Assembly (NCBI GenBank): GCA_951406725.2
Contig: OX597815.1
Span: forward strand, 151,342,001 to 151,406,000
Source of the DNA: Octopus vulgaris
Taxonomy: Eukaryota
Direction of reading: 5' to 3'
Length of the DNA: 64,000 nt
The stretch's first letter is position 1. Each line of letters starts with the position of its first letter. A program made the translations under genes and the position numbers. Shown one piece after another: positions 14,068 to 16,575 of the stretch. Under the pieces are notes generated by a model. It worked only from the letters and a program-made list of their open reading frames with translations, made no database searches and was not told the origin of the DNA.

Positions 14068-15664
14068 GTTTTCCCATAATGCAAAAAAGAAAAAAACCAA
14101 ATACAGAAATACAATTATACAATTACATACAAGCCAATCGAGTGGTATATATTAAATGGTATATATATATATATATATATATAGGGTGTCCATAAATTAC
14201 AGACATCACTAAATATAACCCCAATGGTTGTTATATTTTTTGTTAACATAATAGGTTAGATAGGATGATGTCTAGATTACAATATTACAATAACCAATAA
14301 TATGTTGTGCAGATATAGTAATATTACGATCATGAAATTAGCATTAGCTTATCTCACTCTTTCTCACGGAGCCCCTGGGAAACTTTTGTGGAAGCCTAGA
14401 GTTCTAGGGAACCCTGGTTGAGAAAAGCTGGATTAAAGGTTGATGTTAGCAGAATGTGACAACTGAAAATACAGATAACCCCAGTTGTTATTGATACACT
14501 TGGAGTCATAAACAAAGGTGTAAATGAGTTTCTTGAAAATACCTCAGGGAAAAACCCAACATTTCTGAAATTTAAGCAAAACAAAAAAAAAACAGGCATG
14601 GCTGTGTGGTAAGAAGCTGGCTTCCCAGCCTCATGCTTCTGGTTTCAGTCCCATTGTGTGGCACCTTGGGTAAGTGCCTATTATGATAACCTTAGGCTGA
14701 CCAATGCCTTGTGAATGGATTTGGTAGATGGAAACTGAAAAAAGCCCTTTGGGCCTCATTGAGGAAATGACAAAGGACCAGGAGAGATGGCGGTTTGCTG
14801 TAATTGATAAGACATAGCAAACTAAGTAAACATTTCTGTCTTCCACACATACAAGCTTGTCCTTTCAGGTGCCAGTACCACATAGTAAGTACCTGTGCCA
14901 GTGCTGCTTAGATGTACCCATACTGGTGACACATAAAAGGTACCCAGCACACCCTGTTAAGTGGTTGGTGTTTGGACATTAAACAATGACAATGGTGATT
15001 ATGATATATATATATATTATCATCATCATCATCATTATCGATTAAAACTGGCATGGGTTGGACAGACTGAGGTCTGGAGAGCCAGCAGCTCCTATATATA
15101 TATATGTGTGTGTGTGTGTATGTGTGTGTGTGTGTGTGTGTGTATGTGTGTATGTATGTGTATATATATATGTATGTATATATATATATATATATATATA
15201 ATTTCAACAATTGAGGGTGAAATTAATTAATAATTAATTAATTTCACCAAGTGTTCAGTATGCAAAGGGACCATTTAAGGCGAATTCAAATTATTACAAT
15301 ATATAAAAGGGCTTAGTAAAATAAATTACTTTGCCCTTTTATATATTGTAATAATTTGAATTCGCCTTAAATGGTCCCTTTGCATACTGAACACTTGGTG
15401 AAATTAATTAATAATTAATTAATTTTACCCTCAATTGTTGAAATTATAATTAATCTCCCTCTAATTAATGCTTCGGATTTTACCGAAATAAGCAGTGTTT
15501 GTTGATTTTAACCCACGCTGGTGGAAAGGGGAGGACAGAAATTCTTCGCTTGCATGTTTGAGTTTGTTGGCACTGTTAGTTACGAGCAGATCTTCGAAGG
15601 CGATGAGAGGCCGAAAGAGTATGCTCTCACTTTCAGTGTTTTCAAATCCAAACCATGGAGTTTC

Positions 15665-15716
15665 TGAGCTGATGATAGAAGTGTCTTGATGACTAATCTT
15701 GAAACGTACGTTCTCA
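15665..15716 (+). ncRNA. Type I hammerhead ribozyme, copy 1
   Basis: tgag-CTGATGA-taga...tctt-GAAA-CGTACG-TT-ctca; palindromic stem III ACGTACGT. Confidence 0.85.
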
Positions 15717-16226
15717 AATAACCTTTGCATTTGATTTTTTTATGTCTTTACCCCCAAACTTTCGTGAGTTGAGTTGACCAAACACTATACGAGAGAGATT
15801 TTCTTTAAGTATTAGAAATGGTTTTTTAAAAAAGTTTTTTAGCTGCTATTTCTAATGAGTTCAGTATGCGGCAAAGTAATTTATTTTACTAAGCCCTTTT
15901 ATATATTGTAATAATTTGAATTCGCCTTAAATGGTCCCTTTGCATACTGAACACTTGGTGAAATTAATTAATAATTAATTAATTTTACCCTCAATTGTTG
16001 AAATTATAATTAATCTCCCTCTAATTAATGCTTCGGATTTTACCGAAATAAGCAGAGTGTTTGTTGATTTTAACCCACGCTGGTGGAAAGGGGAGGACAG
16101 AAATTCTTCGCTTGCATGTTTGAGTTTGTTGGCACTGTTAGTTACGAGCAGATCTTCGAAGGCGATGAGAGGCCGAAAGAGTATGCTCTCACTTTCAGTG
16201 TTTTCAAATCCAAACCATGGAGTTTC

Positions 16227-16278
16227 TGAGCTGATGATAGAAGTGTCTTGATGACTAATCTTGAAACGTACGTTCTCA
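16227..16278 (+). ncRNA. Type I hammerhead ribozyme, copy 2
   Basis: Identical to 15665-15716, 562 nt downstream. Confidence 0.85.
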
Positions 16279-16467
16279 AATAACCTTTGCATTTGGTTTT
16301 TTTATGTCTTTACCCCCAAACTTTCGTGAGTTGAGTTGACCAAACACTATACGAGAGAGATTTTCTTTAAGTATTAGAAATGGTTTTTTAAAAAAGTTTT
16401 TTAGCTGCTATTTCTAATGAGTTCAGTATGCGGCAAAGTAATTTATTTTACTAAGCCCTTTTATATA

Positions 16468-16575
16468 TTATATATATATATATATATATATATATATATA
16501 TATATATATATATATATATATATATATATATATATATATATATATATATATATATATATATATATATATATATAT
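16468..16575. repeat. (TA)n microsatellite
   Basis: Direct reading. Confidence 0.95.

Follow-up and report, generated by a model that had tools for sequence, protein, structure and literature searches.

What kind of event places two near-identical hammerhead-bearing units head to tail, behind an inverted fragment of the same sequence, within a run of TA repeats? The question is raised by a locus in a 64,000-nt stretch of Octopus vulgaris DNA, here called the window, to which all coordinates refer unless a numbered locus is named. From the left, a TA-rich target flank (15161–15197) meets the 3′ end of an inverted, 5′-truncated arm on the minus strand (15198–15335), made of unit positions 525–562 plus a 101-nt tail. 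The forward arm, on the plus strand, opens with a 15-nt remnant of a further unit (15333–15347) and continues through unit 1 (15348–15907; 560 nt) and unit 2 (15908–16469; 562 nt), whose 3′ end meets a second TA-rich target flank (16470–16576). The two 5′-truncated arms meet in a GCC microhomology (15333–15335), the match to the tandem starting at 15333 and that to the inverted arm running to 15335. One 2-nt indel and one substitution separate the units; the inverted arm, which begins at 15197 or 15198, is 99% complementary to 15870–16008 and departs from the unit by two substitutions. The near-identical pair, the 138-bp inverted arm ahead of it and the insertion inside (TA)n, all described in the initial annotation, are borne out. 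Absent from that account were that the arm, which carries the tail, is part of the same insertion as the tandem, and that thousands of copies of the family are scattered through the genome.

Some neighboring features deserve brief mention. Within the inverted arm, the two substitutions (15218–15250) invert a loop and perfect one side of an AT-rich hairpin, a pattern expected of template switching within a quasi-palindrome. Two repeat copies that are 77% alike (14594–14710 and 16576–16692), which we take to be SINE-like, flank the insertion at a distance. Farther along the window lie two arrays of 168–179-nt units (55133–55907 and 61244–61694), whose consensus units appear to be related and in opposite orientation.

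Both units carry the string TGAG-CTGATGA-[25 nt]-GAA-ACGTACGT-T-CTCA, with cores at 15669 and 16231, and each has the layout of a type I hammerhead. Motif 1 (15665–15716, plus strand) combines a UGAG/CUCA stem I, the core CUGAUGA, stem II, GAAA and the palindromic stem III ACGUACGU, with a predicted cut after 15712 at GUU; motif 2 (16227–16278, plus strand) is the same, with a predicted cut after 16274. The spacing of these cuts is 562 nt, as anticipated, and they would release a hammerhead-to-hammerhead monomer of that length (15713–16274, plus strand). Rfam yielded no match at the gathering score within the 64-kb window, so the hammerhead assignment rests on the motif and on covariation. Another hammerhead-like string, at about 15599–15630 (CGATGA...GAAA), was dropped because it is not conserved in a diverged subfamily, B. 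The expectation that no recognizable protein is encoded also held: the longest stop-to-stop frame within the element is 108 aa, none of five frames examined matches Pfam at E≤0.1, and it lacks the RT plus GIY-YIG open reading frame of an autonomous EN+ Penelope-like element (PLE). GC content is below 50%, and the insertions are without an LTR layout.

How widespread is this arrangement? A 411-nt query against the animal’s own genome (2.8 Gb, 227 contigs) returned 2,091 candidates, the best 40 of which are full-length matches at 96–100% identity. The family’s hammerhead pattern has 2,099 exact genome matches against none for the reversed control, and is thus not a product of chance; a pattern for the junction between units has 4,078 matches, again with none for the control, and the junction is also common to more distant subfamilies. 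Six subfamily references, A–F, of 545–563 nt served for comparison. A copy of subfamily B, which has 1,599 genome candidates, lies in the same window (at ~41115–41880) with the same layout, inverted arm included; its hammerhead has CUGACGA, a 10-nt palindromic stem III, a GUA site and an A-U stem II opening. In contigs of four other public runs, with four organism codes, all 29 unit bins are covered, a joint going back 562 nt is present in two of the four, and summed contig depth is highest over the 3′ junction in three. Four contig sets guessed to be RNA cover 19–29 of 30 bins, contigs being unable to show transcription, strand, ends or circles.

The hammerhead itself appears to be maintained across this family. 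With no pairing filter applied, 459 of 626 junction-motif occurrences have a core 100–135 nt upstream, overlapping loci being counted more than once. Position 17 in these 459 is U in 270, A in 175, C in 14 and G in none, and the N3–N8 pair, over 49 types, is C-G in 38, U-A in five, U-G in four and something else in two. Both sides of stem I vary (UGAG/CUCA, CAUG/CAUG, UAUG/CAUA, UGUG/CACA), and it pairs at 3.0 of 4 positions across 21 distinct arm pairs; shuffling gives 2.35, and 0 of 2000 shuffles reach the observed level. Stem III is palindromic or nearly so at lengths of 6–10, although its outer two pairs are imposed by the search pattern. Covariation across diverged subfamilies, read from sequence, supports selection on the hammerhead, and since the palindromic stem III is kept as well, a dimeric hammerhead fold is plausible as a model. 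In the predicted ensemble of a two-unit transcript the two palindromes pair with each other (P~1.0) and stem I is not formed (P~0); the motif alone is predicted to fold differently from the active shape (z=0.38). Forcing the double-hammerhead fold would cost 13.3 or 9.8 kcal/mol here, 8.2 in locus L164 and 5.4 in L216, in a model that leaves out tertiary contacts.

GUU sites cut more slowly than GUC or GUA. The idea that the GUU site and the U·U opening of stem II mark decay of this copy was rejected, as both are common across subfamilies. Set beside the minimal and dimeric PLE hammerheads described by Cervera & de la Pena (2014, PMC4209133), those here share the palindromic stem III/loop 3, the U3-A8 variant (in relatives) and a low expected activity as a monomer. 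They differ in a long stem II with an internal loop, which opens with U·U (A·A or A-U in relatives) and not G10.1-C11.1, and in the prevalence of U at position 17.

The ends of the insertions proved more informative. We define E1 as the end of the unit, E2 as a point ~101 nt into the next unit, and the stretch between them as the tail. From 184 loci analyzed, 112 distinct complete insertions were kept, leaving out loci from the PLE search, clusters shorter than 150 nt, and any lying less than 80 nt from the edge of a locus or next to N. Among the 112, the rows for L075 and L076 look like mutual duplicates and four loci are each divided in two; moreover, the loci were chosen by similarity to full units or intact patterns, many on one contig, such that the counts favor long, young copies. 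Sixty insertions are two-armed, 44 have a single orientation and eight are more complex. The 3′ ends point outward in all 60 two-armed insertions, and none of the 112 has inward-pointing arms. Most strikingly paired are the two ends: 56 of the 60 have one E1 and one E2, one has E2 at both ends, none has E1 at both, and three have one end unclassified (binomial P 4.5e-13 against 0.5). Both ends are common, as single-orientation copies show by ending at E2 in 25 cases and at E1 in 17, with two ending elsewhere. TA-rich flanks occur on both sides of 88 of the 112 insertions, and at the center of the 67 multi-arm insertions the arms overlap by 1–7 nt in 37, abut in eight and leave a gap in 22. The present locus follows family custom, its left arm ending at E2, its right arm at E1, and the two sharing a GCC at the center.

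These features place the element among known classes. The plant-type LTR retrozyme, with type III hammerheads in LTRs and a 4-bp target duplication, does not match type I hammerheads in head-to-tail units. By contrast, the non-LTR retrozymes of metazoans (Cervera & de la Pena 2020, PMC7229834; Li, Clavereau & Pollet 2026, bioRxiv 10.64898/2026.07.22.740005) are described as non-coding, low-GC tandem units, each with one type I hammerhead and a short palindromic stem III, with at least two consecutive intact units and a proposed PLE dependence, all as found or proposed here. The 562-nt unit compares with 170–400 nt in PMC7229834 and falls within the 51–972 nt of Li et al. The word ‘inverted’ is absent from the main text of PMC7229834, unlike the two-armed insertions here, and we found no account of such insertions or of paired ends in the portions of Li et al. 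available to us. Homology to a PLE terminus, another point of difference, was not found in comparisons with two resident PLE families. By its sequence the element has what defines a metazoan non-LTR retrozyme, being dispersed, multicopy and non-coding, with tandem hammerheads; the initial annotation’s reading of a young, non-coding tandem with palindromic stem III as a retrozyme fits this class, the self-cleavage it proposed being a candidate property here.

Recognizing the insertion as one of the Penelope two-armed type accounts, in turn, for both the inverted arm and the location in (TA)n. Craig et al. (2021, PMC8557442) describe PLEs as partial tandems with an inverted 5′-truncated copy, a tail often at one end and a bias for (TA)n, and name how PLEs build the tandem and inverted ends as an open question. 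All of these hallmarks are present here, so that the structure is that of a non-autonomous PLE: a partial tandem plus an inverted 5′-truncated copy, an optional tail and a microsatellite target. The Neptune-type EN+ PLEs of that study share this whole architecture, down to a hammerhead upstream of the 3′ end, and non-autonomous head-to-tail derivatives are described from Chlamys. The element here differs in lacking an open reading frame, in a tail of ~101 nt as against 30–40 nt, and in that the rule of a tail ‘often at one end’ is close to strict. The locus is best read as a recent insertion of a non-coding, high-copy animal non-LTR retrozyme, in structure a non-autonomous PLE.

What might specify two starts 101 nt apart? 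The RNA spanning 15820–16015 has a predicted fold with z=-4.10, none of 200 shuffles being as stable. Within the predicted structure over the unit junction (15859–15989, plus strand), a stem (15859–15869/15942–15952) encloses E1, and a hairpin (15957–15989) stands just before E2 (16008). Between subfamilies, C-G pairs of the stem give way to U-A and A-U pairs to G-C; RNAalifold recovers the stem, finding two-sided changes in 3 of 26 pairs and a covariation term that is unfavorable (+0.87), partly from two of ten rows misaligned in the 3′ arm. The junction structure is, in our modeling, likely to be a cis element that is bound or read by a PLE protein. A close parallel comes from in vitro study of the anole Poseidon element PAc (Frangieh et al. 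2024, PMC11167929), in which two internal RT starts bound a tail, both strands are cut and extended, and a dimer is predicted; PAc also has a hammerhead upstream of a structured binding region, the counterpart of which is predicted here. Two differences stand out. The PAc starts are not homologous to the target, whereas both starts here blend into (TA)n via UAUA; and PAc is reported to show no strand difference in start site, whereas two-armed insertions here use each start once in 56 of 60 cases.

Which RNA was copied can be approached through sequence variants. Units are far closer within than between insertions in all six subfamilies, with median differences of 0.19% versus 1.33% in family A, 0.56% versus 2.06% in B and 0.29% versus 4.28% in E. 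Derived sites in 64 two-armed insertions comprise 67 fixed in both arms, 74 singletons, six that are arm-specific (spread over five insertions) and 11 that are mosaic, the last confined to L020, L167 and L169. Both arms nearly always share one haplotype. Variants common to some copies only occur in 4 of 17 insertions that have at least 100 sites covered four times. Among long copies, L164 has ten segments with one singleton and L208 ten segments with no variant; arrays of about ten 545-nt units at L164:2244–7570 and at L168/L208 are almost or wholly invariant. The 5′ ends show no excess at the ribozyme cut: 3 of 159 arms end within 5 nt of the predicted cut, with ~3.1 expected, and 240 segments read through it. 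Run-off at the cut, hinted at by two arms, vanished in this full count. From the lack of any excess at the cut and the read-through segments it follows that the copied RNA is a circle or an uncut multimer, not a linear cleaved monomer. Invariant arrays are explained by a monomer circle and equally by an uncut homogeneous multimer; the three mosaics, which one monomer circle cannot give, call for a multimer or for template switching. Testing for copies in register with a linear multimer turned up a single, partial case (L020). On balance, we lean slightly toward a ligated circle, arising from dimeric hammerhead cleavage, over an uncut multimer.

A non-coding element needs an enzyme from elsewhere, and the genome offers candidates. 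A GIY-YIG search recovered a PLE family with intact 781-aa RT-EN frames, young and open (L061–L072, for example L066:981–5772), several copies having an upstream frame of 479 aa. This family has its own U3-A8 hammerhead, an ACAUGU palindrome and an optional tail of ~33 nt, and its linker motif, in sequence, resembles that described for Neptune elements. A further short element on the opposite strand abuts the coding PLE at L066:790–980 and is hammerhead-like, with a CUGGUGA core and the palindrome ACAUAUGU. A second, abundant PLE family comprises 15,215 candidates with many identical copies; the 3′ ends of this young family (L319–L337) are hammerhead-like, with CUGUUGA where the core would normally stand, a stem II of 4 bp, an ACGU palindrome and a GUU site. 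The unit has no meaningful sequence match to the 781-aa loci and shares no sequence with the second family, such that no homologous coding partner was found among the two resident families compared. When the two PLE proteins were searched by tblastn over 275 loci, fragments emerged near some. Three PLE-neighbored loci were inspected in full, the others being checked for TA runs and position only. The PLE pieces beside L094/L163 and L317 were considered as partners and set aside, as TA runs lie between them and the units, marking separate insertions. The third, L206:2014–4260, is a same-strand fusion of a 5′-truncated second-family PLE, without its own 3′ end, to a family-A unit ending at E1; the two are linked through an inverted stretch of 39 nt and a spacer of low complexity, and TA runs border the fusion on the outside alone. 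L206 is a candidate product of template switching by one enzyme and points to the abundant PLE family, although as a single chimera among 112 insertions it could be mimicked by a deletion between two insertions.

Taken together, it is likely that this non-coding retrozyme is copied in trans by a PLE RT/GIY-YIG endonuclease and inserted from two ends into (TA)n. A PLE enzyme, probably a dimer, would nick both strands of a (TA)n tract, and the DNA 3′ ends would prime within the RNA of the element, E1 serving one and E2 the other; both sites contain UAUA and lie next to conserved hairpins. The resulting pair of cDNAs would then pass through one or more units with no halt at the hammerhead, end at scattered positions and be joined center to center, often via a few bases of microhomology, to leave an inverted arm and a tandem. 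A more specific version, which we put forward tentatively and regard as doubtful in full, is that the dimer is borrowed from the unrelated, abundant coding family and holds a single hammerhead-made 562-nt circle at the covarying two-hairpin junction, giving each nicked strand a start of its own, E1 or E2, and rolling from both (‘twin-start rolling-circle’). A rival to the main account, to which we would give somewhat less than an even chance, retains the two-ended insertion and leaves the hammerhead idle in mobility: uncut read-through multimers would be the template, and circles absent or a by-product. The in vitro results for the anole PLE speak for an idle hammerhead, in that hammerhead mutants left insertion unchanged and unprocessed RNA was reported as the main substrate (PMC11167929); so do the lack of 5′ ends at the cut, the mosaic arrays in 3 of 64 insertions, the weak predicted folding and the cleavage of just one of nine Xenopus retrozyme dimers in vitro (Li et al. 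2026). Harder to reconcile with idleness are a hammerhead kept with covariation across diverged subfamilies, near-invariant arrays of ~10 units with star-like singletons, the outcome expected if one circle were copied round and round, and the accumulation of related animal retrozymes as circles (PMC7229834).

Explanations that dispense with two-ended copying of a retrozyme fare less well. A single unit might have been multiplied locally by unequal exchange or slippage, with the arm arising by fold-back or gene conversion, as a short satellite derived from a PLE end. Li et al. propose local amplification of PLE termini, local homogenization would likewise make units alike, and the six arm-specific sites in five insertions are common to all units of one arm only. 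Yet such an origin, which we consider unlikely, leaves unexplained the pairing of E1 with E2, the outward 3′ ends throughout the two-armed class, the 5′ truncations at scattered points with microhomology at the center, and the long arrays with singletons only. Alternatively, the units could be the pseudo-LTR of a coding PLE and the locus a severely 5′-truncated copy of it. PLE termini do indeed have a hammerhead ahead of two alternative 3′ ends, as in the 781-aa family; however, the units run head to tail from position 1, up to ~10 times, with no coding sequence between them, and the neighboring PLE fragments inspected in full resolved into two separate insertions and the L206 chimera, which makes this reading quite improbable. 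That the tandem is an artefact of assembly, which would have undone the initial annotation, is barely credible. Near-identical units between long TA runs would invite such an error, but an indel and a substitution distinguish the two units, two substitutions set the arm apart, dozens of other loci repeat this register, and other runs contain the 562-nt return joint.

As a retrozyme this element is ordinary, such repeats being known from many animals. We found no description of the family or of strict E1/E2 pairing in the literature consulted on octopus hammerheads, Penelope twin priming and octopus non-autonomous Penelope elements, although supplements or Repbase may name the family. Its value lies in a clean footprint of how PLEs build their ends, with two starts, each used once, in 56 of 60 two-armed insertions. 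Where in vitro work identified two starts and reported no strand rule (PMC11167929), the genomic footprint adds that both arms carry one haplotype and that copying ignores the ribozyme cut. Were twin-start rolling-circle copying to prove true, pseudo-LTRs, inverted arms and one-sided tails would follow from one mechanism, and the 562-nt RNA would be its minimal test substrate. The paired-start footprint, the single chimera and the young coding PLEs of the same genome make the mechanism of integration testable with that RNA.
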